This document shows, in pieces, positions 1,375-50,856 of a stretch of DNA of 64,000 bases. Position 1 is the stretch's first letter; every line of letters starts with the position of its first letter. Position numbers and translations under genes: made by a program. The stretch is from an uncultured Alphaproteobacteria bacterium (GTDB lineage: Bacteria; Pseudomonadota; Alphaproteobacteria; Rs-D84): contig CALXLG010000004.1 of the NCBI GenBank assembly GCA_944389135.1, positions 2,413 to 66,412 on the forward strand, in the 5' to 3' direction. The notes under the pieces are model-generated. The model was given only the letters and a program-made list of their open reading frames with translations. It ran no database searches and had not been told where the DNA came from.

Positions 1375-1384
1375 TTCTTTTTTA

Positions 1385-3334: not shown

Positions 3335-3422
3335 ATTCTCTCTTAAGTTTGATTTTAACATAAAAAAAATGTTATGAAAAGACAAAAAAGCACAACCCTA
3401 TAAAAAAACACCAACAAATATA

Positions 3423-5264: not shown

Positions 5265-5283
5265 TAAAAATAAGTAAGACAAA

Positions 5284-5310
5284 ATAAAACGCCCAAACGG
5301 GCGTTTTATT
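5284..5310. terminator. bidirectional terminator
   Basis: Hairpin acgccc-aaac-gggcgt with T-run flanks. Confidence 0.6.
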
Positions 5311-8300
5311 TTATTCCATGCTGGTGGTAATAACATCACCATATACACCGAACTGTTCAGAACCGATATAACACTGCAGATGCTTACCAACTTCGTTCAT
5401 CCATTCGTCAATGGCTTCACGTTCTGCTTTATCCAACTGAGCATCCTGTACACTTTTTGTTATGTAATAGGTCAACAACCCACCACCAACACCGCCAACG
5501 ACAGAGCTAACACCTGTTGCGATTGCACGTCTTTTTGTTTCATTTTTATCCACAGTAGTCGTGGCTGTAGAATAAGCTTCATCTCTACATGCATCTGCTA
5601 ATTTATCTAATTCGGTCTTTGCTTTCGTCCTAGCTTTTGTCAGTTGATCATCTGTAACAGAACTACTATTGCTCCTTTTTTGGTCTTCAAGAGTTTTTAA
5701 AGCTGTCATTGCGTCATTGACCGTATTAATAATTGTATAAGAAACATTCAGCTCCTCTGCAACTTTGATAGCATTATCTGAATATTGCTTAGCTGTTGCA
5801 TAATTGCTATCTATATTATTTCTTGCGCTACTAGCAAGACCCGCACAATTTCCTGCACGCGCACCTAATTGTCCACTTGCAGTGTTAGCTTTTTTATTTG
5901 ATTGTAAACCGGTTAATCCACCAAAGATGTCACCTGTTGCAACAGCGTCACCAAAGAAACCGCCACCAACGCCACCACCCAGTACACCCAGTGCGGTCAT
6001 CCAACCTGCAATCTTTGGCTGCGCCTCTTTTGCGTCCTCACGGGCAGCACTGCCAACATTTGCAGAGATTTCTTCCAATACACTGGATGGTATCCAGCTG
6101 CCACATGTAAATGTATCGCCCGCTGCATAATACGCTGTTGCCCAATCGGCACCCGAACGTATCGCATCTTGGATATATTTGTCGTCTGACTGAATGTTTA
6201 TACGGATACGGCAGAACGAACCATACAAATCATTACTTGCAACGAAATCATTTGCCTGCAACCCAGATACAGTATAATTAGACGGTACCTTGTTGTTTTT
6301 CAACTTTACCCACAAGAATGTACTGCCCATATCTTTATTACCCATGATACCACCAGAATTGCTGGACATACACATATTCTGTTGTTTTGTAAGCTTTGCG
6401 TTATATTTCGCTTGTGCTTCCATTTCCAAATCTGCAATCAAATCTGTAAATATTTGCGCTTGGGCTTTGCTCTCTGCCAACTGGTCTTTTGTTACCATTT
6501 TTGCAAACATATACATACCACTTGCGTCATCACAACGCCCAGATGCACCAGAACCGTTTTGTGTTGTACACAACAAATTCCCATCTACGTCTTGGTCTTG
6601 AACCATTGTCGCAGTTGTAGATACGTTATATGTACCAGCATCTAACCAACCTTGGCGAACACTGCCGGAACTGCCCCAAGAACTTGCCGAACTTGCATTA
6701 CCAGCCTGTGCACGAGCCATTTCAGCCTTGATATGTTCTGCACAATTTGGATCGGCTTGGACTGTATTTATACACAAACCTAAAATAATTGTATGATCCA
6801 AAACACCACCGACCTTATTCATACTGGCATTAAACGCATCATCGTTCGTATTGGTCAATGATGAATATATGTCTGTACGGTTACGATAACAATTCTGATA
6901 ATCTGTACCACACTGCACTTTAACACAGTTTGTCGCAGTTAATTTGCAATTTTGTTCCATCTGGTCTAATGCACTTTGACTATAAGAAGACGCCAATCTT
7001 GCATTCAAAGATGCAACAACACCAACTGGGTCACCACCGTTATCTGCAGATGTAAACAAACGATCAAACAAGCTGTTGCCATTATTAAATATGTTGATTG
7101 TTATCGCACTACCTTCGGTTGCGTCTAATTTTGCACCAGCATATTGACATGCAATATCATTATTAACAACAGCTTCGCACTCTGATTTTATTGTTTCCAA
7201 AGTACTTGGGTTCGTAACACCTTTTACTGTATTTGAATTGTTAAAAGCAGATGCATAACACGCAGCCCCGCTACCTTCGCCACATGCCAACATTGCACAT
7301 GAAGAAATAGTTTCAGAACAACGCTTCTTCGCTTCTTCATCAAACTGTACAATCAAATCGTCAATCTTTACGCTTAATGATGCATTCATACGTTTTTCAT
7401 ATGCTTCAGAAAACATTTCTGTATGATTATCAGGATCTTGCAACTGAGATGCACTTGGCATAGCACCATTTCCAATTAACGTCGCATAACAGTACTGATT
7501 TGTACCAATAGTATCCATACACTCGTTGCTTAAAAAGTCTTTTACAGAACTTTTTGTTGTTGTCGTCGCACCGCCATTATCAGATGCGCTTTTTTCCTGC
7601 ATTTTATCTGCGGCATCTGCCAATGCAGTTGCGCTTCCTTCTTTACATCTATATGGATTGCTGGCACATGCGTTTAAGAAACATTGGTCAATAACTTTAT
7701 AACATGTAGAAACCGCGTTAACTGCCGCCAATGCCCTACCTTCAGAAATTAAAATACCAACACGACTGTCTGCCGTTGGGTTTGCAGACGTGTTTGTTGT
7801 ACCAAACAATTCTTTGATACCATCACTTTGGCAACGCGCCAAGGTTGATTCACAGAATAATTTTTGCTTCTTGAATTCGGTATCGCTTGTACACAATTCA
7901 AAATCAGAACCACAAACGTCTGATTTCTGCAAACAACTTGTATATTTCTTTACACAGTCGCTTGTATCATAACGATTGCTTATTTCAGCCGCAGAAATTA
8001 ACTGTCCCAAGACACTGCCTGCCGTTGGGTAAGTATATTCACCACTTGAATTCTTTGTTGCCAATGCGGTTTGACTGCTTGTACCAAACAAAGAGTTTAT
8101 ACCAGAAGCATTACACATTGCCAACGTACCAGAACATACCGCCTTTCTAGAAAAGAACAGCGTGTTATTTGTACATTCTTCAAAATTACTGCCACAAGCA
8201 TCGCTTCCTTTCAAGCATTCTGTGTATGCATCAATACACTCGGAGTTTTCTAATAAACTTGACGTGGTCGCCGTCGTTCCTGTTGAACTAGAAACATATG

Positions 8301-8433
8301 CGGTCATCGTCGGCATACGAGATATAGCAGTACCAACAACACTTGGACGCGCAGTCAAGGCATACGCCACAGGAACAATGCTAAAAACCGCCATAAAACC
8401 AATTGTTTTTTTAAGAAGATTCATTAGACTCAC
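5311..8433 (-). CDS. large secreted Cys-rich surface protein (1040 aa)
   Basis: Signal peptide present. Two tandem Cys6 modules (aa ~66-107 and ~160-201) with identical spacing. Gly-zipper-like segments near the C-terminus. Confidence 0.55.
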   Translation of the reverse strand: MSLMNLLKKTIGFMAVFSIVPVAYALTARPSVVGTAISRMPTMTAYVSSSTGTTATTSSLLENSECIDAYTECLKGSDACGSNFEECTNNTLFFSRKAVCSGTLAMCNASGINSLFGTSSQTALATKNSSGEYTYPTAGSVLGQLISAAEISNRYDTSDCVKKYTSCLQKSDVCGSDFELCTSDTEFKKQKLFCESTLARCQSDGIKELFGTTNTSANPTADSRVGILISEGRALAAVNAVSTCYKVIDQCFLNACASNPYRCKEGSATALADAADKMQEKSASDNGGATTTTKSSVKDFLSNECMDTIGTNQYCYATLIGNGAMPSASQLQDPDNHTEMFSEAYEKRMNASLSVKIDDLIVQFDEEAKKRCSETISSCAMLACGEGSGAACYASAFNNSNTVKGVTNPSTLETIKSECEAVVNNDIACQYAGAKLDATEGSAITINIFNNGNSLFDRLFTSADNGGDPVGVVASLNARLASSYSQSALDQMEQNCKLTATNCVKVQCGTDYQNCYRNRTDIYSSLTNTNDDAFNASMNKVGGVLDHTIILGLCINTVQADPNCAEHIKAEMARAQAGNASSASSWGSSGSVRQGWLDAGTYNVSTTATMVQDQDVDGNLLCTTQNGSGASGRCDDASGMYMFAKMVTKDQLAESKAQAQIFTDLIADLEMEAQAKYNAKLTKQQNMCMSSNSGGIMGNKDMGSTFLWVKLKNNKVPSNYTVSGLQANDFVASNDLYGSFCRIRINIQSDDKYIQDAIRSGADWATAYYAAGDTFTCGSWIPSSVLEEISANVGSAAREDAKEAQPKIAGWMTALGVLGGGVGGGFFGDAVATGDIFGGLTGLQSNKKANTASGQLGARAGNCAGLASSARNNIDSNYATAKQYSDNAIKVAEELNVSYTIINTVNDAMTALKTLEDQKRSNSSSVTDDQLTKARTKAKTELDKLADACRDEAYSTATTTVDKNETKRRAIATGVSSVVGGVGGGLLTYYITKSVQDAQLDKAEREAIDEWMNEVGKHLQCYIGSEQFGVYGDVITTSME

Positions 8434-10013: not shown

Positions 10014-10526
10014 TCATTTTTCCAATTCAACAGCTATCTTCTTTACACCCTGAACAGGAACGGACAACACATGTAAAAAATTTGCATCTGCCCCAGAATC
10101 TAATAAAGTTGCAGGCGGTAAAAACTTCTGTCTATCCAGAATTTTATCGTTTTCATCATAAGATATAATTATTACCCCAGGAACACCGTATATTTGTTCT
10201 GACCTATTATGAACACTGCCACTTACCACAAAGTGAACGATGCCGTTATCATCTGTAATTGTTTCTATTTCGGAAATTTCTGCCACCAATGGATTTTCAC
10301 GAATTTCTTTTATCTGATGCTGTGCCATAACCGCAACTGCAAACACAACTGCAGACAACAAAGCACATATAGCAGCAATAAAAGTTAACCACACGTTTTT
10401 ACGTGGAGGCTTTTGAACAACCCACACATTTCCGCACACAGCGCACTTAACAGGCGCCTTTGGCACATTGTCCAAATTATATTCTGTTTTACAAAAATCA
10501 CATACTGTTTTCATACGACGATTCAT
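10014..10526 (-). CDS. zinc-ribbon (CxxC...CxxC) plus DUF3426-like single-pass membrane protein
   Basis: N-terminal CDFC...CAVC zinc ribbon, then one TM helix, then a C-terminal beta-rich domain. Confidence 0.5.
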   Translation of the reverse strand: MNRRMKTVCDFCKTEYNLDNVPKAPVKCAVCGNVWVVQKPPRKNVWLTFIAAICALLSAVVFAVAVMAQHQIKEIRENPLVAEISEIETITDDNGIVHFVVSGSVHNRSEQIYGVPGVIIISYDENDKILDRQKFLPPATLLDSGADANFLHVLSVPVQGVKKIAVELEK

Positions 10527-10534
10527 AGCATATT

Positions 10535-11851
10535 TTATTCCAATTTCAACATCCGATATTTTGCCCTGACTTTATTTTGTATTTCTTGCAACGCATTCAT
10601 ATAATCAGATACTGTCGCATTTTTATTAGACGATACCGCACCAAATATTTTACCGCTTTCTGTATCCGAAGCATTTTCCATATAAACAGCCAAAGACGCT
10701 AATCTGTTTAATTCTTCAAAAATAATATCTTGCATATTTGCAACACCAGACACAACATCCCAATAATATGCGGGGTTAACAGAATCTTGTATCAAGCTGC
10801 GCACAACTAAACGTGGTGTAATAGAACCAGTAAAACCAACAGTGACATACAAAGCATCGACGCTGCCAAAGGTCATATCTATATTTCTATTAACTTTCAG
10901 TATCGTAGGGTCATCTTCGTTATAAACAGAAAGACCACCCAATGTCATATTGTTAACCCACAAATCCCCCGTAGTAAAACTGCTAAATTTTGCAGTATCT
11001 GCCAAGCTAAGAGTTCCGTAAACCTCCATTGTTCTAGAATCCGATGTAAGTATTCCAGAGACTGTTGCACTTGCACTTTCAAATGGTTGATCCAGCGTTA
11101 TCCTGTTTTCAAATATAACATTGTCTGCGACTGCAACCCCCATTGTCAAAGTCTCGTCAAACTGCGCCGCCTGCGCATTGAAAAAAGCAGCATTATTTAT
11201 ATTATGCCCACCAAGATTTAAACCGGAAAGCATCGTTGCATCTGCAGAATCTTTTGACGGAACACGCCATAAATATAACGCGTTATCACGATTTACAGAT
11301 GTTGTTTCTACAATACCACCAGAAACATTTACACCTAAATCGACCGCGTCTGTATGCCATGCGCCAAAACTTCCATATGCACGATTACCTTCTATAAATC
11401 CCATTGAATCACCACCTAATGCAACGATTTCACGTGTCCGCATAGGCGTTATCTCTTCTGATGAAAAAACTATTACCCCTTGCAAAGTTGCCTTACCGTC
11501 TAAATCATTTGACTTCAAAATACGCAACTGATAATCATCTCCTGCACTTAAGACCAAATCAGGTGAAACACCATAATCTTGCAATTGTGCCATTTCTACA
11601 CGTGTAATATTTCTGCCGACAGTATTTAATAAAGTTTCTCTATTATCCAAAATATACCGTTCAAGCGCATCTTGGATGCTTTCCATCTGACGCGTTATCG
11701 CAATATTTTCTGCACGCATAGCCGCATTTTGTTGGTACTTAAAAATAAAAGGCATTATTATCGCGGCCAGCGCAATGCTCATCAACAATTCTATCAGCAT
11801 ACTTCCTTTCTGCGTACCATAAAAAATTTTACTTTTAAAACGCATTTTCAA
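10535..11851 (-). CDS. large prepilin-like (pseudopilin-like) protein, paralog 3
   Basis: Class III signal: basic leader, Gly, then SMLIE with Glu at +5 and a ~20 aa hydrophobic helix. 438 aa in total. Shares the LxGLNLGGxxINN motif with its two neighbours. Confidence 0.6.
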   Translation of the reverse strand: MKMRFKSKIFYGTQKGSMLIELLMSIALAAIIMPFIFKYQQNAAMRAENIAITRQMESIQDALERYILDNRETLLNTVGRNITRVEMAQLQDYGVSPDLVLSAGDDYQLRILKSNDLDGKATLQGVIVFSSEEITPMRTREIVALGGDSMGFIEGNRAYGSFGAWHTDAVDLGVNVSGGIVETTSVNRDNALYLWRVPSKDSADATMLSGLNLGGHNINNAAFFNAQAAQFDETLTMGVAVADNVIFENRITLDQPFESASATVSGILTSDSRTMEVYGTLSLADTAKFSSFTTGDLWVNNMTLGGLSVYNEDDPTILKVNRNIDMTFGSVDALYVTVGFTGSITPRLVVRSLIQDSVNPAYYWDVVSGVANMQDIIFEELNRLASLAVYMENASDTESGKIFGAVSSNKNATVSDYMNALQEIQNKVRAKYRMLKLE

Positions 11852-13046
11852 TTTCCTTTGGTTGCGCAGCCTGCCAGCCCTTTGACATTATGACAGAAAA
11901 TTCTTCATTTATCGGCGCAGCAGGAACAGACGCACGCGATAAATTTAATTCTGCAAACCGAGGCGGTGTCAAAGAAGGAAAAGACCAACTACCTAATCTT
12001 ATCGGCACAGTTGTAGACATCAATAATTCACCAGATACAGTTAACCCAAAGTTATCATAAAAAGTTATTTCTTCTGCAGATATATATGATGTAGTTAAAC
12101 TATGTGCAGTAACCCCCGTAAAACCACTAATTGTACGAATAGAATCTGATTTTAAGACTAAATTATTTGCGACGTTTACAGAGTTTAACACAGTTGCTCT
12201 ATCAGTTATTATGCGACCATTTGTTGTATACTTTTCACCGTTTAATTTGTCAGCATAAATATTACGAAAACCGGAAACATCATCAGAAATTCGCATCGAA
12301 CCAAATGTAGCCTGATCTGCATCTAAGTTAGCACCCGATGAAAAATAAATTACATTTGACAGTATGCTACCCGTTTCAATAAAAGAAGACGAAATATTTT
12401 GCACCTCGGCAGACTTTGCAACAACACCACCAACATCATATACTTTATTTTTCCCAAGATTTAAATCTCTTAACATAACATTTAAATCGTCTTCACCCAT
12501 TTTTGTACGATGCAAATATTTTGTTTTATCTTCACCATTTATATCACGCGATATTTTATAAATTAAATTACCTGGTTTAAAATCTGGTGCAGAAACCGCC
12601 CACAAATCACCATATGCAATTCCATCACTGCCAACAACAGCCGCATCTGAACCAATGTGCTTTGCCACCTGCGAAGTACGCAGTAAACTATTATCTAAAT
12701 CAAACGCTAGGTAAACATCAGTAATTGTTGCACCGTTTACAGCATATTTATCTATAAACCCAGCAACAGGAAACTCAGAAATATTATCCAGTTCTTCATC
12801 AGCTAACCTTATCTGTGCAATATCTGGCCAAGAAGCTTGATTTAATCTTATGAAGTTTAGTACAGAATCCCTTAGCTCTACTATTTTATTAGCAGTTGCC
12901 ATATCACGCAATTCATTATTAGTTTCAGATATCTGACTATATAAAATAGGCGTAGCCAAGGCAACAACCGCCATTGATAAAATGACCTCAAGAATACTAG
13001 AACCCTTAGATTCATCAGAAAAAATTCTATAATTACATACAGCCAC
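11835..13046 (-). CDS. large prepilin-like protein, paralog 2
   Basis: Leader ...SKG, then SSILE with Glu at +5 and a hydrophobic helix. 403 aa. Overlaps the downstream gene by 17 nt. Confidence 0.6.
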   Translation of the reverse strand: MAVCNYRIFSDESKGSSILEVILSMAVVALATPILYSQISETNNELRDMATANKIVELRDSVLNFIRLNQASWPDIAQIRLADEELDNISEFPVAGFIDKYAVNGATITDVYLAFDLDNSLLRTSQVAKHIGSDAAVVGSDGIAYGDLWAVSAPDFKPGNLIYKISRDINGEDKTKYLHRTKMGEDDLNVMLRDLNLGKNKVYDVGGVVAKSAEVQNISSSFIETGSILSNVIYFSSGANLDADQATFGSMRISDDVSGFRNIYADKLNGEKYTTNGRIITDRATVLNSVNVANNLVLKSDSIRTISGFTGVTAHSLTTSYISAEEITFYDNFGLTVSGELLMSTTVPIRLGSWSFPSLTPPRFAELNLSRASVPAAPINEEFSVIMSKGWQAAQPKEIENAF

Positions 13047-14409
13047 TTTTACCTTCCAACAAGCATCTTTTTATATCTATTCTTTTTTCTAGTCTTTGCC
13101 AAAATACATACTGACACAATATATATTGCGACAAAGATTTTTGATTGTAGCGCCCCTCTAATTCATTAACTATAGACCTGCAATCAACAGTCTTTGATTC
13201 ATCTGAGGCTGGGTCATCAATTATTTTAAAAACGCTATTATCAATAGAGTCTAACAAAGCATCAGGCAAAACAGAAGTCCCCGCAGGACGTATATCTAAA
13301 ACAACCGCCCCGGTTTCACCTTCGTTCAATGCACTTGATGTCTGATCACGCATTGTTATATTTGATGCAATCATAGTGTTTGTTTCTATACCACTACGCG
13401 TATTATATTCTAATTCATCTGGATCTATAAAAACATCCTGACCACGTGAAGCGTTAATATACGAATTCAATTCTAAACGTTCTACACTTAAATTAATATT
13501 ATCCGTAATAACATCACCTGCAACATACCAATCTGTCGGACCAGAAAAACTTGTTCTGCCCGCAGTCATTGCGAAATCATACACAGATGCGCTGTTTGAA
13601 GTAAAATTACCAGTATCCCCAAATTTAGAAATTGTTTTTGTATTTACATTACCAACACTTAATGTACCACGTGTAACAGACAAAGCCGCCTCACCCGAAT
13701 AACTTTGAAAAACGGCTTTTTCTGACGCCATAACTTCAATGCTATTTCTAACCTTTCTGCCATTTTCTTCACCGAATAAACTCAAAGTATTAAATTGCCC
13801 TGTTTCAAATTCGCCACGTCTTGCAAAAATCTCGCCTATATTGTTTATAGAAAAACCACCCATATCTAAATCTGTCAGAAAAGCACTGTTTTCTAAATTA
13901 GTTTCATTTCTTTTTACAACATCAGAATAAACATCATCCAGCGCAAGCCCAACAACTATATTTTTCCCGTCAACAGCTGCGTAAAAACCTATTCTGCGTG
14001 CTAGTTCAGCCAACTGTAATTCTGTTAAATCACCACCAGAAAGTTGCAGATACGCACTTACCTCGGTTGCAGACTTATTTATTACCAAAGAAATATTTTG
14101 TCCCAAGGCAGTACGTGGAACAAAACCAAGTGGCAAACCATAAGACTCCAATAAATCAGAAAAAGCGTTTCCAGATAAGACCGTTTGATTATATGGTAAA
14201 TTATTTGCCTGCTCGCGCACAAAAATTCGGGCCGCAGTTTGTGCAAGCTCTACCTTCCTAGTAGAAGAATACATCTGGGCATCCATATCTCTTACGGCAA
14301 GTCTTTGTGCAAAAAACGGAATAAAAGCAAATATCAGCGTAAACGCCAGCAAAGCTTGCAATAAAAAATTTCCACTCTGCTTTTGCAAAAAGGCACCTCC
14401 TACACGCAC
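13033..14409 (-). CDS. large prepilin-like protein, paralog 1 (Gln at +5)
   Basis: Leader ...KQSG, then NFLLQ followed by a 21 aa hydrophobic segment. 458 aa, with a C-terminal Cys cluster. Overlaps the next gene by 14 nt. Confidence 0.5.
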   Translation of the reverse strand: MRVGGAFLQKQSGNFLLQALLAFTLIFAFIPFFAQRLAVRDMDAQMYSSTRKVELAQTAARIFVREQANNLPYNQTVLSGNAFSDLLESYGLPLGFVPRTALGQNISLVINKSATEVSAYLQLSGGDLTELQLAELARRIGFYAAVDGKNIVVGLALDDVYSDVVKRNETNLENSAFLTDLDMGGFSINNIGEIFARRGEFETGQFNTLSLFGEENGRKVRNSIEVMASEKAVFQSYSGEAALSVTRGTLSVGNVNTKTISKFGDTGNFTSNSASVYDFAMTAGRTSFSGPTDWYVAGDVITDNINLSVERLELNSYINASRGQDVFIDPDELEYNTRSGIETNTMIASNITMRDQTSSALNEGETGAVVLDIRPAGTSVLPDALLDSIDNSVFKIIDDPASDESKTVDCRSIVNELEGRYNQKSLSQYILCQYVFWQRLEKRIDIKRCLLEGKSGCM

Positions 14410-14925: not shown

Positions 14926-16464
14926 ATGAGTGATAATTATACAGTTTTAGCGCGAAAATATCGCAGTCAAGATTTTCAAACTCTTATTGGTCAAGATGTT
15001 TTAGTAAAAACTTTAACTACTGCTATTAATACAGGGCGAATTGCTCATGCTTATATTTTTACGGGTATTCGTGGAACAGGTAAAACAAGTACCGCCAGAA
15101 TTTTAGCAAAAGCATTAAACTGCTTATCTTCTGACGGTCCAACTGCAACACCTTGTGGAAAATGCGAAAATTGTCGCGCCATTGCAGCAGGTCAACACAT
15201 TGACGTTCTTGAAATTGACGCGGCGTCGCACACAGGTGTTGATAATATGCGTGATATCTTAGACGCTGCCCAATACAGACCAACAAACGGCAGATATAAA
15301 GTATATATAATTGACGAAGTACACATGTTATCTACAAGTGCTTTTAATGCATTGTTAAAGACGCTCGAAGAACCACCTGCACATGTAATTTTTATCTTGG
15401 CAACGACAGAAATACGAAAAGTTCCTGTAACTATTTTATCACGTTGCCAACGCTTTGACTTGGTTCGCGTTCCTGTAGAAACACTAAAAAAGCACTTTGC
15501 ATGGATTGCAGAACAAGAACACATAGAATTATCTGATGCAGCAAATGAATTGTTAGCGCGTGCAGCAGACGGCTCTGTCCGTGATGGTTTGTCTTTATTA
15601 GACCAAGCAATTGCGCAAACTGGCGGACACGTTGATGAAAAGTCTGTACTTGATATGTTAAAGCGTGCAGACAGGGGCGTGGTTGTTGAATTTATGAAAA
15701 CTTTATTATCAGGCAATACTGCTGCTGCCCTTGAAAAAGTTGACGAGATTTATACAAACGGTGCAGACCTTTCCATGTTATTAAACGATATGATGGAATG
15801 GACTCATTGGGCAACGCGTATGCACCCTGCTTTACACGCTGGTGAAACAAATAGCTCACCTTATACCGCGGACCAACGCGAACAAATTTATGAAATAGAC
15901 AACAAAGTTTCTATTAATACTTTATCCAGAATCTGGCAGGTTATGGTCGCGTCAGTTTCCGAAATGCAGGCTGCGGGAAATCAAAAACAATGCTTTGATA
16001 TGTTGGTAATAAGATTAATGCATATTGCTGACATGCCTTCTGTGCCAGAAATATTAAAGCAGCAAGCGTCAAAACCATCTGCACCAATTACAGAAAAGCA
16101 ATCTCAGACAGAAACCAAAAATGATAAAATAAAAATTTCTTCTGCAGAAGATTTAGCGAACGCGTTACAGAAAGCCAAAGAAATTTTATTATATTCTTAT
16201 TACAGCAGTAATATAGAAATTGTAGAATTCAGCGAAGGAAAAATAAAATACTTTGACCGTAAGGGCGATGCAGATTTTGCACCAAAACTTTCTGCTTGGT
16301 TGTGCGATAAAACTGGATGCACTTGGGTATTAGAACGTGCACAAGAATCTTTGCACACGCATACTGTGACAGAAAAGAAACAAGAAGAACTGGAAGCAGA
16401 CCCAATGGTTGCCAGCGCAATGAGTCTTTTTGAAGACGCAGAAATTGTTGGCGTATCTAAATAA
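14926..16464 (+). CDS. dnaX: DNA polymerase III subunit gamma/tau
   Basis: GIRGTGKTS Walker A motif, the zinc motif CGKCENC, and clamp-loader boxes. Confidence 0.9.
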   Translation: MSDNYTVLARKYRSQDFQTLIGQDVLVKTLTTAINTGRIAHAYIFTGIRGTGKTSTARILAKALNCLSSDGPTATPCGKCENCRAIAAGQHIDVLEIDAASHTGVDNMRDILDAAQYRPTNGRYKVYIIDEVHMLSTSAFNALLKTLEEPPAHVIFILATTEIRKVPVTILSRCQRFDLVRVPVETLKKHFAWIAEQEHIELSDAANELLARAADGSVRDGLSLLDQAIAQTGGHVDEKSVLDMLKRADRGVVVEFMKTLLSGNTAAALEKVDEIYTNGADLSMLLNDMMEWTHWATRMHPALHAGETNSSPYTADQREQIYEIDNKVSINTLSRIWQVMVASVSEMQAAGNQKQCFDMLVIRLMHIADMPSVPEILKQQASKPSAPITEKQSQTETKNDKIKISSAEDLANALQKAKEILLYSYYSSNIEIVEFSEGKIKYFDRKGDADFAPKLSAWLCDKTGCTWVLERAQESLHTHTVTEKKQEELEADPMVASAMSLFEDAEIVGVSK

Positions 16465-16477
16465 AGGCAATAAAAAT

Positions 16478-16936
16478 ATGAGACAAGAATCTGGACGTTC
16501 TTTAATTGAAATTATGGGGGTTTTGGCAATTGCTGGCTTAATGAGCGCCAGTGCAATCGGCGTTTATAACGTTATTAGAAATAACCAAATTAGAAAGATT
16601 GCATCTATGGAAATAGAGCAGATTGTAAAAAACACAAAATTACTAATGGAAATGCGTGGTGATTATACTGGTTTGTCCGTTGATTACTTAATCTCTGCGG
16701 GTGCATTAAAAACTAACAAAGCGCCAATTGGTGCATCTAATTGGTCAGTAGAACCTATTAATAATGGTGCTGGTTTTTCTATTAATTTAACAGGTTTAAC
16801 ATCTGGCGAATGTCAATATTTTTCAGCAACAAAACCAAAATGGGCCACATCTATCATAGTAAACGGTATTGAAACAGATATTAATACAAACTGTTTTTCA
16901 ACTAACACTAACCAAATTTCTTTTACGGTTGAATGA
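16478..16936 (+). CDS. type IV pilin-like protein
   Basis: ATG at 16478 preceded by aagg. Prepilin motif G/RSLIE with Glu at +5, about 150 aa, and a C-terminal Cys pair. Confidence 0.6.
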   Translation: MRQESGRSLIEIMGVLAIAGLMSASAIGVYNVIRNNQIRKIASMEIEQIVKNTKLLMEMRGDYTGLSVDYLISAGALKTNKAPIGASNWSVEPINNGAGFSINLTGLTSGECQYFSATKPKWATSIIVNGIETDINTNCFSTNTNQISFTVE

Positions 16937-17613
16937 AAAGTATAAATAAAGGTCTTTTATTTTTAGGTTCTTTAATTCTTGCAGGCTGCATGCAATATCA
17001 CAGTCCTGACCGTAATACATGGGCTTACTATCTAAACGGTGCCAGCTTTACAGACATGACAGAAATGTCACGCATTGCAAAAAGACCTGTTTATTTGGGG
17101 GCTGGTGGAAAATTAGTAACAGAACAAAACACGTCCCCACAAATGGATTATGGTGATAAAACCACAAACGATAATGCAGTCAGTGTACAATATATGGCAG
17201 AGCTGGAATATACGCTATATGATGCTTTACGCAAGCCAGGAATTTCTGTTCAACGTGCGGGAACTGATGTTGTTGTAATACTTGTCCGAGACGCGCTGAT
17301 GGAATTAAATGTTGCAGATATTTCAGAAACAGGTGCAGATACGCTTAAAACGATTTCAAAGATACTAAAAGAATATGATGCAACATTTATTGAAATTGCA
17401 GGATATACCGACGCCATGAAAAATCAACAGGCTGCAAACGCTTTATCTTTAGACATGGCGCAACGTGTTGGCGTTTATCTGTCCCAACACGGAATAAATA
17501 CGGCACGAATGTTTATTGTAGGTCGCGGTTCCACACGCCCCATTGCCGCCCAAGATGATATTGGCAGATTAACAAATAGACGCGTTGAAATACGTATTGT
17601 GCCCGCAAGATAA
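16933..17613 (+). CDS. OmpA-family lipoprotein
   Basis: ATGA start/stop overlap with the pilin gene. Lipobox LILAGC. C-terminal OmpA-like peptidoglycan-binding domain (GYTD...RRVEI). Confidence 0.7.
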   Translation: MKSINKGLLFLGSLILAGCMQYHSPDRNTWAYYLNGASFTDMTEMSRIAKRPVYLGAGGKLVTEQNTSPQMDYGDKTTNDNAVSVQYMAELEYTLYDALRKPGISVQRAGTDVVVILVRDALMELNVADISETGADTLKTISKILKEYDATFIEIAGYTDAMKNQQAANALSLDMAQRVGVYLSQHGINTARMFIVGRGSTRPIAAQDDIGRLTNRRVEIRIVPAR

Positions 17614-19501: not shown

Positions 19502-19939
19502 ATGATTGACGCAAAAGGTATTGAAAATGTAATTCCTCATCGTGGTGCAATGCGCTTGGTTGATGAAATTCGTGAATATAATGAAACCAGCGGGGTTGGC
19601 ATTAAATATGTTCGTGATGATGAATTTTGGTGTGCAGGGCACTTTCCTGGCCACCCCATTATGCCAGGGGTATTACAAATAGAGGCTTTGGCACAAACAG
19701 CATGCTTTATTGCTTTATCAAATATGGGAATAACAGGTGGTAAGACATTGGGATATTTTACCACAATGGAAAAAATAAAATTCTCGCACATGGTTATGCC
19801 AGGTGATGTTCTGGAACTGCACGTGGAATTGGTTATGTCAAAAATGAGATTATATAAATTTCACGGTATCGCAATGGTAAGCGGTAAAAAAGTGGCAGAA
19901 GCAACATTTACTGCTATTATTGACCCAACAAAAGAATAA
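19502..19939 (+). CDS. fabZ: 3-hydroxyacyl-ACP dehydratase
   Basis: HFPGHPIMPGVL hotdog motif. Confidence 0.9.
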   Translation: MIDAKGIENVIPHRGAMRLVDEIREYNETSGVGIKYVRDDEFWCAGHFPGHPIMPGVLQIEALAQTACFIALSNMGITGGKTLGYFTTMEKIKFSHMVMPGDVLELHVELVMSKMRLYKFHGIAMVSGKKVAEATFTAIIDPTKE

Positions 19940-19958
19940 AAACAAAAAACAATATTTA

Positions 19959-19986
19959 AAAATGCCCAAATGGGCATTTTTTATTT
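19959..19986. terminator. bidirectional terminator
   Basis: Hairpin aaatgccc-aaat-gggcattt. Confidence 0.6.
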
Positions 19987-22200
19987 GATTGGTTCTAGTA
20001 CTTTTATCTCTTTCGTTTGCGGTATATATATCTTTGGAACGCCCGAATAACCCAACGCAGCGTGATGAGACGGTATTAAAAACTCTGGCAACGGACTGCA
20101 TTCACCCATCGCCATATAACTTGCCAGGCGCGGGTCATTAAATGCGTATTGTTTGTCCGCTTCTATTGGTCTGTGATACCACCCTTGGAATATTACAAGC
20201 TGTTTTTTATCATCCAATTTCATGATATCCATAGGCGAATAAAGCAATTCTTCACTGGTTTCTTCTTTATCTTTACCGTCTGGACCTTTGACAGTTTTTA
20301 CCTTCATCTTATACCCCATCATTTCAGAAAAGCGTTTTGCTGTATCTGGGTCGTTTTGACGCAAAACTATCTTTGCCGCAGTCGTAGATATAATTGTTGC
20401 AGCCGCATCCGCACCATATTTTTCCTGTATCTGATGTAAGTCCTGACCAATAATCAAATAAGATATCTTTTGACCACGTCCCAAATCAGGTCCTTGGATA
20501 ACTGCCTGCAACTTTTGCATTTTTGGCATTTCATCTAAAACAAATAGTACAGGATATGGTCCTAACTTATGTCCATTATTTATTGCCTCTGGTTTATTCG
20601 CCAACAAGAAATTACTCATCAATTCAATAAATATACCTGTTATCGGATTTAACGCCTGTGCATCAACCATATTTATTGATAGGTAAACTGTTACAGGTTT
20701 TATCTTGCCATCGCGTGGGTCTTTTAGACCACGCAAATCTTCAAAGTGAAAATCGGAATGGCTTGTTCTGTTACGAACGGCCGCATTGCGGAATATGCCA
20801 AGCCCCGCCATAATCGTTGATAAAATAGAACCACGTTCTTTATCAGGCGTGTTCGCCAGTTGCGTTAATTCAAGGATTGCACGATGCGCATATGCATAAC
20901 GACGCGCCTCGTCCACAGCATTTGTAAACAAATCTTTCATTGGGTCTGCCATCATGACCATTTGGTCACCTTGGCGACGACGCTCTTCTAATTCTTGCCC
21001 AATACTTATTTGGCTGGCATTTAACCAATCTAAAATCATTGATAAAGACGCCTCTTTACCAACCCATGCAGGTGGTATATGTTCCCATGTACCAATATGA
21101 ACATAGTTTGTTTCATTTAATTCCCCACGTTGTAATAATGCATGTGCAGCATATGCATTTGGGTCTGTCATCATTGATAAATAATAATCAGATAAAACAG
21201 CAGCATCTTCTTCGTCAAACGTACCTGACTTTATACGCGCATAGAAATAGTCATCTGCACGCGCACGTTCTACTTTTGAAACCATAAACTGAATTAAACC
21301 AGACAAACCAGCACGACCAGAAATAGTCCAGTGCGGGTCAGCAGAAGAACCGGCCGCATCAGGCACTAAAACATTACAAATTGAATCAATATACAAATCA
21401 CGTTGTTCTTGATTAAATGGTACATGTTCTGGTGACAATGGATTCCAAGACGGGTAATAAATGCCACGTTCTGGGTCATCCTGCCCAGCCCAATTCATAA
21501 TAAACACCGGACCAATTGTTGAACGATATGCAGACGATATCTGTTTAAGTTCAGGTTTTGGGTCATTAATAATCATTGATACTGTATTACAGTCAAAAAT
21601 TGTCGGCAAAACAACTCCATATGTTTTACCAGTTCCTGGGGGGGCAACACACAGCGCAGACAAGCATTCGTTCATCATAAGTGGCTTTTTCTTAAAGTAG
21701 CCAAGCACCATCATAAAGCCCTTAAACAATCCCATTTTTTCAATATCTTCTTTCGTCGCTTTATTAGACGATTTTTCTGCAAATTTATCGTTACCATATG
21801 GATTGAACTCTTTAACCAATGTGCTGTCCGCCATAAAATAATATGCAATTATCGGCAAAAGTGGTGTTATACACGCCAAGTCCGTTCGCATTACTGTACG
21901 TGTCATCCATGCAGGAATTTCTGCCAAGACAGAAAGCCCCCCACTGTACAACATATTTTGCAAATAAATACTGGTCCACTTTGCAGATGCCGGCGACCAA
22001 CCATATCGCCATATATGCTCTATGATAAAAGACAAAGCAAAAGCCAGCGCACAAACCAGCCATATTCCAATTGCCCAACGCAAAGACCAAAACAGCGATG
22101 CCATCGGCGTTCGCATATTTTCTTTATATGCGCTGGACTTGAATATATTCAAGCCTTTGGAGCTGCCACCTGCGGATAAAATCTTGAACTTCTCGACCAT
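19981..22200 (-). CDS. type IV secretion coupling protein (TraG/VirD4/DotL family ATPase)
   Basis: N-terminal TM segments, Walker A APPGTGKT, a DPKPEL box, Walker B LFVLDEMP, and a GQDLHQIQEKYG box typical of T4CPs. Confidence 0.65.
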   Translation of the reverse strand: MVEKFKILSAGGSSKGLNIFKSSAYKENMRTPMASLFWSLRWAIGIWLVCALAFALSFIIEHIWRYGWSPASAKWTSIYLQNMLYSGGLSVLAEIPAWMTRTVMRTDLACITPLLPIIAYYFMADSTLVKEFNPYGNDKFAEKSSNKATKEDIEKMGLFKGFMMVLGYFKKKPLMMNECLSALCVAPPGTGKTYGVVLPTIFDCNTVSMIINDPKPELKQISSAYRSTIGPVFIMNWAGQDDPERGIYYPSWNPLSPEHVPFNQEQRDLYIDSICNVLVPDAAGSSADPHWTISGRAGLSGLIQFMVSKVERARADDYFYARIKSGTFDEEDAAVLSDYYLSMMTDPNAYAAHALLQRGELNETNYVHIGTWEHIPPAWVGKEASLSMILDWLNASQISIGQELEERRRQGDQMVMMADPMKDLFTNAVDEARRYAYAHRAILELTQLANTPDKERGSILSTIMAGLGIFRNAAVRNRTSHSDFHFEDLRGLKDPRDGKIKPVTVYLSINMVDAQALNPITGIFIELMSNFLLANKPEAINNGHKLGPYPVLFVLDEMPKMQKLQAVIQGPDLGRGQKISYLIIGQDLHQIQEKYGADAAATIISTTAAKIVLRQNDPDTAKRFSEMMGYKMKVKTVKGPDGKDKEETSEELLYSPMDIMKLDDKKQLVIFQGWYHRPIEADKQYAFNDPRLASYMAMGECSPLPEFLIPSHHAALGYSGVPKIYIPQTKEIKVLEPIK

Positions 22201-22256
22201 TGTGTTATATTATAACAGAAAAATATTAAATTATAAATCAGGAAATAATAAAACTT

Positions 22257-22913
22257 GTGAAAAATATCCCACGAATCTTTATAGAACAAAATTTACAAGC
22301 CGGAATCAAAATTCCAGTTGAAAAAGACACCTCTCATTACTTAAAACACGTAATGCGCAGAAATGATTGCTTATGCTTTAATAACGGGAATGAATTTACT
22401 GCCACATTATCAGATGACGGTAAAAGCCTGTTGGTCGGTGATAAGACAAACCATTTAGACCCATCAAACGAAATTACTTTATATTTTTCACCAATAAAAC
22501 GGCTGGATGATTTATTAAATATGGCAACGCAAATGGGCGTAAAAACTTTACAACCAGTAATTACAGAGCGTACCACAGCACAACACATCAACTGGGACAG
22601 AATGAAAAAAATAATAATTGAAGCCGCTGAACAATCAAACCGCAATAGCGTACCAAGCTTGTTACCACCAAAGAAGTTTTCTGAAATTAATTTATCTGAA
22701 ATTGTTTTTGCAGACGAACGTGCAGCATACGGCAAAGCAACCGCAAATATACCCGAAGGTGTAAAAAATATTCTTGTTGGCCCAGAAGGTGGTTTTTCGG
22801 ATGCAGAATTTGATAAACTCGATAAAGCGGGCGCTATTGGAATAAGCCTTGGGCAAACAATTCTGCGGGCAGAACTGGCCGCAGCCATAGCACTTAGTAA
22901 AGTATTAAAATGA
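22257..22913 (+). CDS. rsmE: 16S rRNA (uracil1498-N3)-methyltransferase
   Basis: GTG start. GPEGGFS motif of the RsmE family. Confidence 0.8.
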   Translation: MKNIPRIFIEQNLQAGIKIPVEKDTSHYLKHVMRRNDCLCFNNGNEFTATLSDDGKSLLVGDKTNHLDPSNEITLYFSPIKRLDDLLNMATQMGVKTLQPVITERTTAQHINWDRMKKIIIEAAEQSNRNSVPSLLPPKKFSEINLSEIVFADERAAYGKATANIPEGVKNILVGPEGGFSDAEFDKLDKAGAIGISLGQTILRAELAAAIALSKVLK

Positions 22914-23635: not shown

Positions 23636-24634
23636 ATGAAAAAAAATATCTCTAAGAAAAATTCTGCTGCAAAGAAACAGGTAAAACAAATTACAAAACC
23701 TGAAATTCGTGCAAAAGAAGCAAAGCAACCATGCACAAGTTCTTGGTCTGCATCTGTTTACATTTACTGGTTTATCATTTTATTTTTCATCGCGGCAACA
23801 TTTTATATTCTAGGTCGCAGTCATGGTTCTTTTGTTGACACACAACCAACACAAAATGTTGAAATAACAGAAGAAGCACTATTGCAACCATCTGATTACT
23901 ATGAAAGTGGTAAAACAAAATTATTGGCTGGGAATATCGATGAAGCAATTACAGATTTAACTGTTGCTATTGATTCTGGAAACGCCAACGTTGATACTTA
24001 TATTTTACGTGGCGAAGCATACATGCAATCTGCAAATTACAGAAAAGCATTAGAAGATTTTAATACAGCAATTGAAAAAGACCCTGTAAATGCAATTGCA
24101 TATTATGATCGTGCATTGTTAAATATTCGTTTGGAAGATTATACCACTGCATTAAACGATATAAATAATGCTTTGGCTGCACAAACAGCAAACCCAACAC
24201 AAATTTTACAACTACGTGATTTGTATGCTAAACGTGGTCAGTTAAATCTATGGTTAAAAAATTGGGAAGGTGCAATTGCTGACTATACAAATTCTTTATC
24301 CCGTCCTGATGGTATAGTTAGCCCTTCCGTTTATGCAGAACGCGCAGAAGCGTACACTGCATTAAATAACTATACAGAAGCAATTAATGACTACACTTCT
24401 GCAATTCGCGTAATTTCAGAACAAATACAAGGTGCAACAACTGCAGAACAACGTGAATCTTTGTCCAGCAGTGCAATGTCTTACTTTGAAAAGTCAGCGG
24501 CATTAAATTTGGCATTGAATAATATTGATGCTGCTCGTTCTGATTTGGAATCTGCGTACACAATTGCGGCTGCGTTAACAGATACAGCCAGCATGGAAAG
24601 ATTGCAAGGTTTGATAAATGACCTGCAACAATAA
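23636..24634 (+). CDS. TPR-repeat membrane-anchored protein
   Basis: Basic N-terminus, one TM helix, then TPR-like repeats. Confidence 0.45.
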   Translation: MKKNISKKNSAAKKQVKQITKPEIRAKEAKQPCTSSWSASVYIYWFIILFFIAATFYILGRSHGSFVDTQPTQNVEITEEALLQPSDYYESGKTKLLAGNIDEAITDLTVAIDSGNANVDTYILRGEAYMQSANYRKALEDFNTAIEKDPVNAIAYYDRALLNIRLEDYTTALNDINNALAAQTANPTQILQLRDLYAKRGQLNLWLKNWEGAIADYTNSLSRPDGIVSPSVYAERAEAYTALNNYTEAINDYTSAIRVISEQIQGATTAEQRESLSSSAMSYFEKSAALNLALNNIDAARSDLESAYTIAAALTDTASMERLQGLINDLQQ

Positions 24635-28134: not shown

Positions 28135-28728
28135 TTATAGCAAGCACGCTAATGTTGCACTTGTGTTTTTCAGCATAAACCAACCTATACGATAGTCTGT
28201 TGCATAAACTGTTGCCAAGAACAACGCAAGAATACCGATAACGATAATAACATTTGCTTTCTTACCACGCATACAATACAAAGCAATATTATAAAACAAG
28301 AATAAAATATACACATCAACCAACAAACTAATAATCCACATAGATGTGCAATTAAAAGCCAGTGCATTTAAAACCAATATAACCGGATAAATAAAGAATA
28401 CTGATGCCAAACCTTTTATAGCAATTTCCCAGTCCCTTTCGCCGCCTGTAATTTCAGACACCAGCATTAACAAACCACCCATAACGAACAATAACGCAAC
28501 CGCCAAAACAGGTACAATTACTATTGCAGTAAATACGGCACTGATTGTGATTGTTGCCCCACCGATTAATCTTAATAGCAATACCAACACGCCGCCTAAC
28601 AAGCCATATATAAAGGCCTTAAACATTGCTTCTTCCATATTACCGTCAGCAACAATCTTTGTAAAATAACGTTTCGGGTTAATCAAAATATCTTTAATAT
28701 GTATTAATGTCTTTTTTATTTTCTTCAT
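28135..28728 (-). CDS. Yip1-domain integral membrane protein
   Basis: Five predicted TM helices and a Yip1-like N-terminus. Confidence 0.5.
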   Translation of the reverse strand: MKKIKKTLIHIKDILINPKRYFTKIVADGNMEEAMFKAFIYGLLGGVLVLLLRLIGGATITISAVFTAIVIVPVLAVALLFVMGGLLMLVSEITGGERDWEIAIKGLASVFFIYPVILVLNALAFNCTSMWIISLLVDVYILFLFYNIALYCMRGKKANVIIVIGILALFLATVYATDYRIGWFMLKNTSATLACLL

Positions 28729-41986: not shown

Positions 41987-42115
41987 CCCCGCCTTTGGTC
42001 GGGGAGCCGTCGGTTATAAAACAGGGCTTGCCCGAAAACTGGCGGGGTCATTTTACAAACTATGATTTTTTGAACTCCCCGACCGTCAAATTCCATTGGC
42101 GGTCTTATGTTTTTT
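41987..42115 (+). promoter_or_regulatory. candidate attenuator/riboswitch-like leader
   Basis: Terminator hairpin 42081-42104 plus U-run lies just before the ribosome-binding site. An alternative 8 bp pairing (41997-42004 ggtcgggg with 42077-42084 ccccgacc) and a local hairpin (41987-42003) give mutually exclusive structures. Confidence 0.35.
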
Positions 42116-42133
42116 AAGAAAGGAGTCGGTAAG

Positions 42134-50845: not shown

Positions 50846-50856
50846 TTTATAACCTT

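Follow-up and report, generated by a model that had tools for sequence, protein, structure and literature searches.

A conserved VirD4-type coupling protein of "Candidatus Enterousia," probably part of a scattered chromosomal type IV secretion system

A 64,000-nucleotide stretch of contig CALXLG010000004.1, from an uncultured alphaproteobacterium of the Rs-D84 lineage, was analyzed and is called the window here. At positions 19981 to 22200 of its minus strand lies an open reading frame (ORF) of 739 aa, the product of which is a VirD4-type type IV coupling protein (T4CP). We found that this T4CP is a core, membrane-anchored, predicted coupling ATPase, and it probably serves as the substrate receptor and feeder of a chromosomal type IV secretion system (T4SS) of the VirB/D4 (P) type whose genes are scattered. 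The protein belongs to the TraG/VirD4 family in sequence and fold, its gene is a core gene under purifying selection, its relatives stand in virB operons, and VirB3 and VirB4 occur in the same lineage.

The gene product is a divergent member of the TraG/VirD4 family

The product of positions 19981 to 22200 was confirmed as a genuine TraG/VirD4-type T4CP and is a predicted ATPase, as judged from its sequence and structural model. Pfam models PF02534 (E = 8.7e-49; 167 bits against a gathering threshold [GA] of 20.1), PF12696 (E = 5.6e-20; 72 bits, GA 22) and PF10412 (E = 1.3e-17; 64 bits, GA 20.5) all matched. Curated NCBIfam subfamilies were also compared (VirD4 PRK13897/PRK13850, IncP/Ti TraG, F/SXT TraD, CD1115, and MobC), and since every one of them scored far under its cut-off, the protein is a divergent member of the family. 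CD1115 was the best of these (132 versus 250 bits), followed by IncP TraG (110 versus 674), VirD4 (99 versus 728) and TraD (36 versus 521), the score with the MobC model also being far under its cut-off. The features of the gene and its product are listed below; motif conservation refers to an alignment of 23 T4CP relatives, down to 25% identity.

19981 to 22200, minus strand: VirD4-type T4CP gene, 739-aa ORF with an ATG start, supported by Pfam, AlphaFold2 (AF2), Foldseek, and conservation
22015 to 22089, minus strand: transmembrane (TM) helix 1, aa ~38 to 62; Kyte-Doolittle 19-residue mean up to 2.4, within model helix 32 to 66
21817 to 21879, minus strand: putative and weaker TM helix 2, aa ~108 to 128, sequence LACITPLLPIIAYYFMADSTLV; model helix 112 to 131
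21622 to 21645, minus strand: Walker A motif APPGTGKT, aa 186 to 193; K192 invariant, and G189, G191, and T193 at least 90% conserved in the 23 relatives
aa 213 to 218: DPKPEL box
20761 to 21411, minus strand: enlarged all-alpha domain, aa ~264 to 480, in the interval between Walker A and Walker B; helices only at 264 to 478 in the model
21091 to 21264, minus strand: clade-specific insert of ~57 residues in the all-alpha domain, aa 313 to 370; conserved 0.80 across 80 species
20524 to 20547, minus strand: Walker B motif LFVLDEMP, aa 552 to 559; D556 invariant in the 23 relatives
aa 585 to 596: box GQDLHQIQEKYG
19984 to 20130, minus strand: short charge-neutral C-terminal tail, aa 691 to 739, without an acidic extension

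An earlier reading of this DNA, made from its letters alone (the sequence-only reading), had quoted four boxes as hallmarks of the TraG/VirD4 family, and all four are present at aa 186 to 193, 213 to 218, 552 to 559, and 585 to 596. Its family call agrees with Pfam, with profile searches of the PDB and with the fold. It had further proposed two to three N-terminal TM helices; hydropathy and the model fit a two-helix anchor as in VirD4, but not a third helix. By analogy with VirD4 and TrwB, the loop of ~45 residues between the two helices would face the periplasm. An acidic C-terminal tail, for which that reading had suggested a check, is absent, as the last 60 residues hold 7 D/E versus 6 K/R, unlike the long D/E-rich tails of relatives P0127, P0137, and P0138.

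The AF2 model of the T4CP had a predicted local distance difference test score (pLDDT) of 84 and a predicted template modeling score (pTM) of 0.74, and its fold is that of a RecA-like nucleotide-binding domain into which an all-alpha domain is inserted. With Foldseek, Cag-beta was the best match (E = 4e-19) and TrwB gave target TM-scores of 0.66 to 0.76, the next folds being DndH, HerA, and VirB4 at E ~6e-7 or weaker. The single sequence had no match in the PDB by plain phmmer, and a profile was needed; a profile of the 23 relatives matched Cag-beta (E = 7e-13), TrwB (E = 1e-3), and DotL (E = 7e-3).

Membership in the FtsK/SpoIIIE or another AAA+ family, which the sequence-only reading had named as the alternative, was rejected. 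No FtsK_SpoIIIE match was obtained in Pfam at E up to 0.1, no FtsK chain was present among the 50 best fold matches listed, and T4CPs came ahead in Pfam, the PDB profile search, and Foldseek. A Dot/Icm affiliation was rejected as well, the profile match to DotL being weak compared with that to Cag-beta and a DotL-type NCBIfam match being absent.

The T4CP is a vertically inherited core gene

In a scan with one genome per species, relatives of the T4CP were found in 313 species-level genomes. The best 80 of these, on which the locus counts and mean identities given below are based, encode full-length proteins with 73 to 91% identity and come from "Candidatus Enterousia" and from gut metagenome-assembled genomes (MAGs) labeled Alphaproteobacteria or "Rickettsiales," from humans, poultry, ruminants, horses, and rodents. 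In the NCBI taxonomy, the genus Candidatus Enterousia is placed in Alphaproteobacteria incertae sedis. Two carriers have closed genomes, of 958,618 bp (OZ007020.1) and 716,531 bp (OZ246409.1). In the literature Enterousia is assigned to order Rs-D84, for which genomes of 0.67 to 1.0 Mb without respiration and with incomplete glycolysis have been described; amino acid and nucleotide synthesis are lacking, and the members are presumed to be obligate symbionts or parasites. The analogy that the sequence-only reading drew to obligate intracellular bacteria holds to the extent that this is a reduced-genome, presumably partner-dependent bacterium.

Over the 80 loci, the mean amino acid identity of the T4CP was 81%, next to 83% for dnaX, 82% for der, 86% for infB, 86% for lpxD, 63% for rsmE, and 68% for rluB. 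Every region of the protein was conserved at 0.70 to 0.89 over the 80 species, with values of 0.70 to 0.78 for the TM anchor and periplasmic loop and 0.77 to 0.83 for the all-alpha domain. The gene was linked to rsmE, rluB, and a gene for a tetratricopeptide repeat (TPR) protein in 73 to 78 of the 80 loci, and the fabZ side was rearranged in more than half of them. Given this conservation throughout the protein and the linkage to rsmE-rluB-TPR, the T4CP gene belongs to the core genome, is inherited vertically, and is under strong purifying selection. A mobile-element remnant was rejected on its distribution, synteny, and composition, and on the lack of mobility genes in the window and flanks.

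Two observations on these loci are added. The TPR protein of the rsmE-rluB-TPR unit (positions 23636 to 24634, plus strand) is membrane anchored, has 332 aa, and is retained in this unit, divergent from the T4CP gene, in 73 of the 80 genomes with 71% identity. Two public records with the T4CP locus carry unexpected names, CAVGNU010000002.1 being labeled "Bacteroides fragilis" and OZ246409.1 (716,531 bp) "uncultured Muribaculaceae" (loci L043 and L045); these are probably binning or labeling errors.

The T4CP descends from virB operons and defines an insert-bearing subfamily

A HMMER search over 1.84 billion representatives yielded 219 T4CPs at E < 1e-30, including full-length relatives at 30 to 50% identity. 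The closest operon-embedded relative, P0128 of locus L109 (48% identity), stands at the end of the gene order virB4-538aa-339aa-VirB7-like-virB8-virB9-417aa-virB10-virB11-T4CP. A relative with 39% identity in locus L082 belongs to a chromosomal virB10-virB11-T4CP set, with virB4, virB8, and virB9 divergent alongside. The nearest plasmid relatives (30 to 33% identity) are found in canonical virB2-virB11/virD4 operons on Sphingomonadales megaplasmids, and these virB loci also carry a MobA/MobL relaxase, topoisomerase III, and primase. Because its relatives sit in virB/D4 operons, the Enterousia T4CP is a VirB/D4 (P-type) coupling protein that was split from its operon.

The insert of ~57 residues, with the elements A(N/D)DYF, YY..M, and NY.(P)IG.W, was found in all Enterousia sequences and in 16 other relatives of the alignment. 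It is missing from every sequence compared that is operon embedded (L082, L109, P0139), plasmid borne (L111, L112), or classical VirD4-like. In the AF2 model, the insert forms helices of the enlarged all-alpha domain, to which substrates or regulators bind in TrwB, VirD4, and Cag-beta. The insert-bearing T4CPs from outside Enterousia with a readable context all stand alone amid housekeeping genes (6 of 6; L081, L083, L084, L110, L113, and L115). A crude neighbor-joining tree did not recover the insert-bearing proteins as one clade, so a single origin of the subfamily rests on the insert itself.

The solitary T4CPs have recurrent neighbors. A pentapeptide-repeat gene lies directly upstream of the T4CP, abutting or overlapping its start, in L081 (9006 to 9998), L083 (8772 to 10001), and L113 (8672 to 9997). 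Their products, of 330 to 441 aa, are homologous (30 to 37% identity) and could represent a substrate or a regulator of the DNA-mimic type; the Enterousia DNA searched contained no homologue of them. In L115, a 49-aa VirB7-like lipoprotein is encoded 3.3 kb from the solitary T4CP; it matches the lipoproteins of the L082 and L109 operons (E = 3.5e-7 to that of L082) and has the SPCAC motif in common with them, which is another sign of scattered T4SS parts in the insert-bearing group. After it, two single-TM proteins are encoded (248 and 212 aa), for which VirB8 was the best but not a significant match and Pfam gave none. This region (15501 to 17049) may be a scattered virB7-virB8-like island.

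As a further observation, a secretin-domain lipoprotein (PF00263, 39.7 bits versus a GA of 27.5) is encoded between virB9 and virB10 in L082 (13410 to 14741, minus strand), and a distant homologue with 22% identity occupies the same operon position in L109 (6011 to 7264, plus strand). A secretin within a VirB-type operon is unusual.

A conserved virB3-virB4 island occurs in the same lineage

The sequence-only reading had called the T4CP an orphan. This is true of the window but probably not at the genome level, as related genomes carry a conserved virB3-virB4 pair elsewhere. In locus L037, from an Enterousia-group MAG with a T4CP 83% identical to that of the window, a VirB3-like ORF and virB4 lie 5.6 kb from the T4CP gene, having been brought there by rearrangement. 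Aligned with a bona fide VirB4, the L037 protein shows 37% identity over 772 residues (E = 3e-159); it also scores above the threshold of the Pfam CagE_TrbE_VirB model and has intact motifs (Walker A GPTGGGKT and Walker B LIMIDE). Used as a query, it retrieved 1,462 homologues, the best 120 of them at 78 to 96% identity, so the VirB4 family equals the T4CP family in abundance and conservation. For five of these homologues, the longest contigs are identical in length to T4CP-bearing contigs (201,727, 418,380, 344,892, 117,175, and 117,257 bp), and we take these as cases in which T4CP and virB4 share a contig.

In 24 further loci, virB3-virB4 forms a mini-island of its own amid housekeeping genes, with neighbors such as ychF, a SufBD-like gene, dnaG, topA, ABC-F, lpxK, lpxC, and infB-nusA. 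Two conserved genes come after it: in 15 loci (e.g., L085, 12419 to 13036), one for a secreted 205-aa protein in which an HExxH motif and four cysteines are invariant, and in 9 loci (e.g., L037, 5032 to 5691), one for a 219-aa protein with a TM helix at each end. Neither protein had a match in Pfam or the PDB. The HExxH protein recalls an essential peptidase of a Saccharibacteria epibiont, which is likewise encoded downstream of virB4.

A type IVb-like pilus is encoded near the T4CP

The pilin-like system that the sequence-only reading had seen 6 kb from the T4CP is real and comprises four ORFs with prepilin-like N termini in the window, as follows.

16430 to 16936, plus strand, probable start at 16478: PilS-like type IV prepilin gene, 152 aa, MRQESG (cleavage) RSLIEIMGVLAIAG; weak Pfam PilS match, E = 0.0024
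10014 to 14409, minus strand: three large prepilin-like ORFs (403 to 458 aa, at 10535 to 14409), as read from their N termini, and a Zn-ribbon protein

The G/xxxxE site is canonical in three of the four prepilin-like ORFs, the 458-aa ORF being without the Glu at position +5. The large ORFs had no Pfam domain; they are reminiscent of the PilV adhesins of R64. In relatives, the pilin cluster goes on with PAP_PilO, a 229-aa protein, a 545-aa T2SSE ATPase, and a T2SSF platform protein (L071, 14061 to 21368; L085, 19163 to 22415). From their sequences, the genes at 10014 to 14409 are predicted to belong to a type IVb-like pilus and not to the T4SS proper, and with a T2SSE ATPase and a T2SSF platform of its own, the pilus needs no T4CP. 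Type IV pili have been reported only for another lineage in the mSphere paper on Rs-D84.

We also observed that 31 of the 80 Enterousia loci have the PilS-like pilin no more than 10 kb from the T4CP, and that pilin genes recur beside the solitary T4CPs of the two closest non-Enterousia lineages. In L084, a pilin homologue with the same orientation as the T4CP lies 43 nt upstream of it, and L110 has two copies 1.2 to 2 kb downstream; no other T4CP neighbors are shared by L084, L110, and Enterousia. The pilin hidden Markov model (HMM) had no match in the operon-type, plasmid, or pentapeptide-linked T4CP loci. In addition, virB3-virB4 lies 6 to 9 kb from PilO-T2SSE-T2SSF in 8 of 22 loci. The PilS-like pilin is possibly linked to the T4CP in function, and the simplest reading of their proximity, by analogy with the R64 thin pilus, is cooperation, in which the pilus would make contact and the T4SS would deliver. 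The sequence-only reading had gone further and suggested that the T4CP might have been recruited to the pilin system in place of a T4SS; the linkage it had pointed to does recur, but such a replacement is unsupported, the pilus having an ATPase and a platform of its own.

Proposed role of the T4CP and alternative explanations

The reading that we favor, and consider probable, is that the T4CP feeds a scattered VirB/D4 system. In such a system, the two N-terminal TM helices would anchor a T4CP hexamer in the inner membrane, next to a VirB3/VirB4 complex with which the T4CP would be physically coupled. The enlarged all-alpha domain and its 57-residue insert would recognize substrates, a role assigned to them because there is no acidic C-terminal tail, and ATP hydrolysis (Walker A K192, Walker B D556) would pass the substrates to the channel. 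Enterousia is diderm, as indicated by lpxD, LptF/G, OmpH, and BamB-like genes in the window, and some outer-membrane conduit is therefore required; the remaining parts of the channel would be encoded elsewhere in the genome. The type IVb-like pilus, partly encoded nearby, would probably make the cell-cell contact. In the more than 100 loci inspected, the T4SS genes had no relaxase in their vicinity, and because of this the cargo is probably protein, which would be delivered to a partner or host cell on which Enterousia depends.

Several points weigh against this reading. A search of ~1.9 Mb of redundant Enterousia DNA around T4CP and virB4 genes, for which tblastn and phmmer were used with L082 probes and with those of the closer L109, together with a VirB9 HMM of 107 sequences, revealed no VirB6, VirB8, VirB9, VirB10, or VirB11. 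A VirB9 profile search of 5.8 billion proteins, which relies on shared 5-residue words and loses sensitivity below ~35 to 40% identity, gave 107 matches from Holosporales, Rhodospirillaceae-like, and other lineages, none of them Enterousia-like. VirB4 was seen in related species, the window's own contig being 66 kb long. No substrate, effector, or relaxase was identified for the T4CP. One Patescibacteria strain, moreover, could grow epibiotically without its T4CP, and exaptation has been proposed in that case.

Re-purposing of the T4CP, perhaps together with VirB3/VirB4, so that it works with the type IVb-like pilus or some other passage through the envelope in place of a canonical VirB7/9/10 channel, for example, in export through a secretin or in DNA or nucleotide acquisition, would amount to a hybrid or exapted machine, and we regard it as unlikely. 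It would be in line with the failure to find VirB9, VirB10, and VirB11 in the Enterousia DNA searched and with the PilS-like pilin genes that accompany the solitary T4CP, at a distance of at most 3 kb, in three deep lineages with no other common neighbors (Enterousia, L084, and L110). The 8 of 22 loci with virB3-virB4 near PilO-T2SSE-T2SSF, the secretin-domain genes between virB9 and virB10 in L082 and L109, and the T4CP exaptation proposed in Patescibacteria would also suit it. However, the pilus owns a dedicated ATPase and platform, and more than half of the Enterousia species have lost the pilin linkage, which is also absent from L081, L083, L113, and L115. We know of no T4CP that powers a type IV pilus, which also speaks against this explanation. 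The failure to find VirB9, VirB10, and VirB11 rests on incomplete sampling, and the thin pilus of R64, by assisting a T4SS, sets a precedent for cooperation without fusion. A bolder variant would be a stripped-down hybrid machine of Enterousia and its nearest relatives, in which VirB3/VirB4 and the insert-bearing VirD4 feed substrates through a type IVb-pilus or secretin-type apparatus, or act in obligate concert with it, in place of the VirB7/9/10 core and the insert is an adaptation to the new partner. The linkage of pilin and T4CP in three deep lineages, the secretin in related virB operons, and the failure to find VirB9/10/11 make it compatible with the data, and we hold it to be improbable.

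It is very unlikely, in our view, that the T4CP is a leftover or trans-acting part of an integrative and conjugative element or mobilizable island that uses the T4SS of another element for horizontal transfer. The family does descend from conjugative systems, its nearest plasmid relatives are accompanied by MobA/MobL relaxases, and mobilizable elements that carry a T4CP without a T4SS are known from the literature. Against this stand a full-length gene in 313 species-level genomes, conservation like that of translation factors, a stable rsmE-rluB linkage, a GC content that matches the surroundings, and the lack of a relaxase, integrase, or repeat boundary in the window and flanks, with the tRNA gene 23 kb away. 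Equally remote, to our mind, is a stand-alone DNA translocase with an FtsK- or HerA-like role in chromosome handling or DNA uptake and no secretion channel. T4CPs are related to the FtsK and HerA types, HerA and VirB4 appeared as distant fold matches, and DNA import would be useful to Rs-D84, which has no nucleotide biosynthesis; however, T4CPs led the matches in sequence and fold by many orders of magnitude, conservation extends to the TM anchor and the periplasmic loop, the parts with which T4CPs contact their channel, and the conserved VirB3/VirB4 pair co-occurs in the lineage.

Comparison with known systems

The sequence-only reading had considered a dispersed T4SS of either the rvh-like or the Dot/Icm-like form. 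The rvh-like (VirB/D4) form is supported, but not the Dot/Icm form, given the match to DotL at E = 7e-3 and relatives in virB8-9-10-11-D4 operons. Like the rvh T4SS with RvhD4, the genes studied here are chromosomal, of the VirB/D4 type, and from a reduced-genome alphaproteobacterium; they lie in dispersed islands amid housekeeping genes, with virB3-virB4 as one island and with no relaxase in the window or flanks. Rickettsiales keep virD4 in a virB8-9-10-11-D4 operon, and their virB3-virB4 is followed by virB6 paralogues. In contrast, the Enterousia virD4 is monocistronic, the operon form being found only in L082 and L109, and its virB3-virB4 is followed by the HExxH protein and the two-TM protein. 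Classical VirD4-like representatives of 550 to 590 aa, which are perhaps of the Rickettsiales type, are ~33 to 36% identical to the window T4CP and are without the insert.

With the VirB/VirD4 system of Agrobacterium and plasmids (mating pair formation class T [MPF-T]) and with IncP TraG, the T4CP shares its Pfam families, TM anchor, Walker motifs, and all-alpha domain, and the VirD4-like and IncP TraG models are among its best NCBIfam matches. It differs from the plasmid T4CPs, to which it is at most 33% identical, in its insert, in having no acidic tail, and in its core-genome context, where no relaxase was seen. Cag-beta (Cag5 of Helicobacter pylori, PDB 8DOL), which acts in protein translocation, is the closest solved structure by profile and fold; it is only 13 to 15% identical in the structural alignment and is encoded inside the cag island. 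According to the title of the PDB entry, its all-alpha domain binds the regulator CagZ. TrwB of R388 (PDB 1E9R/1GKI) has the same hexameric-ATPase fold (target TM-score, 0.66 to 0.76), but its profile match is marginal (E = 1e-3), and it is conjugative and relaxase dependent. The all-alpha domain of TrwB (1E9R) has ~115 residues, whereas that of the window T4CP has ~215. DotL (IcmO of Legionella Dot/Icm) is a distant member of the common superfamily; the window T4CP is without its long C-terminal adaptor-binding extension, and no Dot/Icm genes were seen.

Patescibacteria epibionts resemble Enterousia in their reduced genome, partner dependence, and chromosomal T4SS, in a T4CP that is usually unlinked from virB4, and in a peptidase downstream of virB4. 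Their T4SS, however, is that of a monoderm (MPF-FATA), whereas Enterousia is diderm with VirB4 and T4CP of MPF-T ancestry. The thin pilus of IncI1 plasmid R64 (PilO/Q/R/S/V) likewise combines a PilS-like pilin, large PilV-like prepilins, PAP_PilO, T2SSE, and T2SSF alongside a T4SS. In R64, this T4SS is I type (Dot/Icm-like) and plasmid borne, whereas the Enterousia genes are chromosomal and their T4SS ATPases are of the VirB/D4 type; the proximity of the genes suggests that pilus and T4SS may cooperate in Enterousia as in R64.

Surroundings of the T4CP gene and other features of the window

The T4CP gene lies between fabZ and rsmE, as the sequence-only reading had claimed, with the following elements around it.

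19502 to 19939, plus strand: fabZ, above the NCBIfam cut-off, convergent with the T4CP gene
19958 to 19981, both strands: bidirectional terminator-like hairpin AAAAATGCCCAAATGGGCATTTTT between the convergent fabZ and T4CP genes; a consensus match only
22209 to 22237, minus strand: sigma-70-like promoter on the upstream side of the T4CP gene, with 10 of 12 consensus positions and an extended TG; a consensus match only
22257 to 22913, plus strand: gene for an RsmE-family methyltransferase (rsmE), above the NCBIfam cut-off, divergent from the T4CP gene

The promoter-like site is housed in the 56-nt spacer between the divergent T4CP and rsmE genes, and the number of sigma-70-like sites around the T4CP is not above shuffled expectation. 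With a promoter-like site of its own and a terminator-like hairpin shared on the fabZ side, the T4CP gene looks monocistronic. Its GC content (0.41) is inside the range of the window, whose sole tRNA gene lies 23 kb away. Genes near it include dnaX, OmpH/Skp, lpxD, a pseudouridine synthase, sigma-32, Der, and IF-2 (NCBIfam or Pfam).

Pfam scans of the 40 window ORFs without obvious identity revealed no relaxase, VirB, or Dot/Icm gene, and when VirB3, VirB4, VirB8, VirB9, VirB10, and VirB11 probes were run with phmmer against every stop-to-stop ORF of the window, the T4CP itself was the only match; the absence of such genes from the 64 kb, claimed from the sequence alone, is borne out by both. 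No integrase or repeat boundary was detected in the window or the flanks of the T4CP. A complete conjugative element just outside the window, which had been raised as a possible objection, was not found, the window being nearly the whole 66-kb contig and the ±10-kb flanks in 80 relatives holding housekeeping genes only.

Several other features of the window were recorded. Large predicted secreted or surface proteins with hardly any annotation are encoded at 601 to 8433 (257 aa, 666 aa, a 613-aa BspA-type leucine-rich repeat protein, and 1040 aa without a Pfam match), two examples being those at 1385 to 3385 and 5311 to 8433, and are candidate adhesins or T4SS substrates. At 42107 to 44845 (plus strand), a 465-aa lipoprotein without a Pfam domain is followed by a SLAM outer-membrane protein (PF04575, E = 1.6e-32), a pair that suggests surface display of the lipoprotein in a reduced genome. 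A 197-aa protein at 28135 to 28728 (minus strand) belongs to no Pfam family and is conserved like IF-2, with a mean identity of 85% over 46 species. Between truB and mutS, at 50342 to 51351 (minus strand), tandem paralogous ORFs of 167 and 164 aa have similar N termini and no Pfam match.

Significance

The basic situation is of a known kind, since Rickettsiales are known to have scattered T4SS loci and it is "not uncommon" for a T4CP gene to lie far from virB4, and the finding will not greatly surprise a T4SS specialist. New are the T4SS genes in Enterousia/Rs-D84, compared with PMC12306168 and PMC13558222, neither of which mentions a secretion system in this lineage; one further paper names Rs-D84 together with that term. 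New as well are the extreme fragmentation, with a monocistronic virD4 and a virB3-virB4 pair without virB6, and the insert as the mark of a habitually solitary T4CP subfamily that is recurrently linked to pilin or pentapeptide-repeat genes. The position of the insert in the substrate-binding all-alpha domain raises the question of whether substrate recognition or regulation has changed.

Found widely in the guts of humans, poultry, and ruminants, Enterousia has a genome under 1 Mb and presumably lives off a partner. As its T4CP and VirB3/VirB4 pair are conserved like translation factors, type IV secretion is a candidate core interaction device of these bacteria, in parallel to the T4SS that is essential for epibiosis in Saccharibacteria. 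Overall, a scattered secretion system may underlie the partner-dependent lifestyle of Enterousia, and the T4CP, VirB4, and the pilin offer concrete handles on the lifestyle of a common gut lineage.

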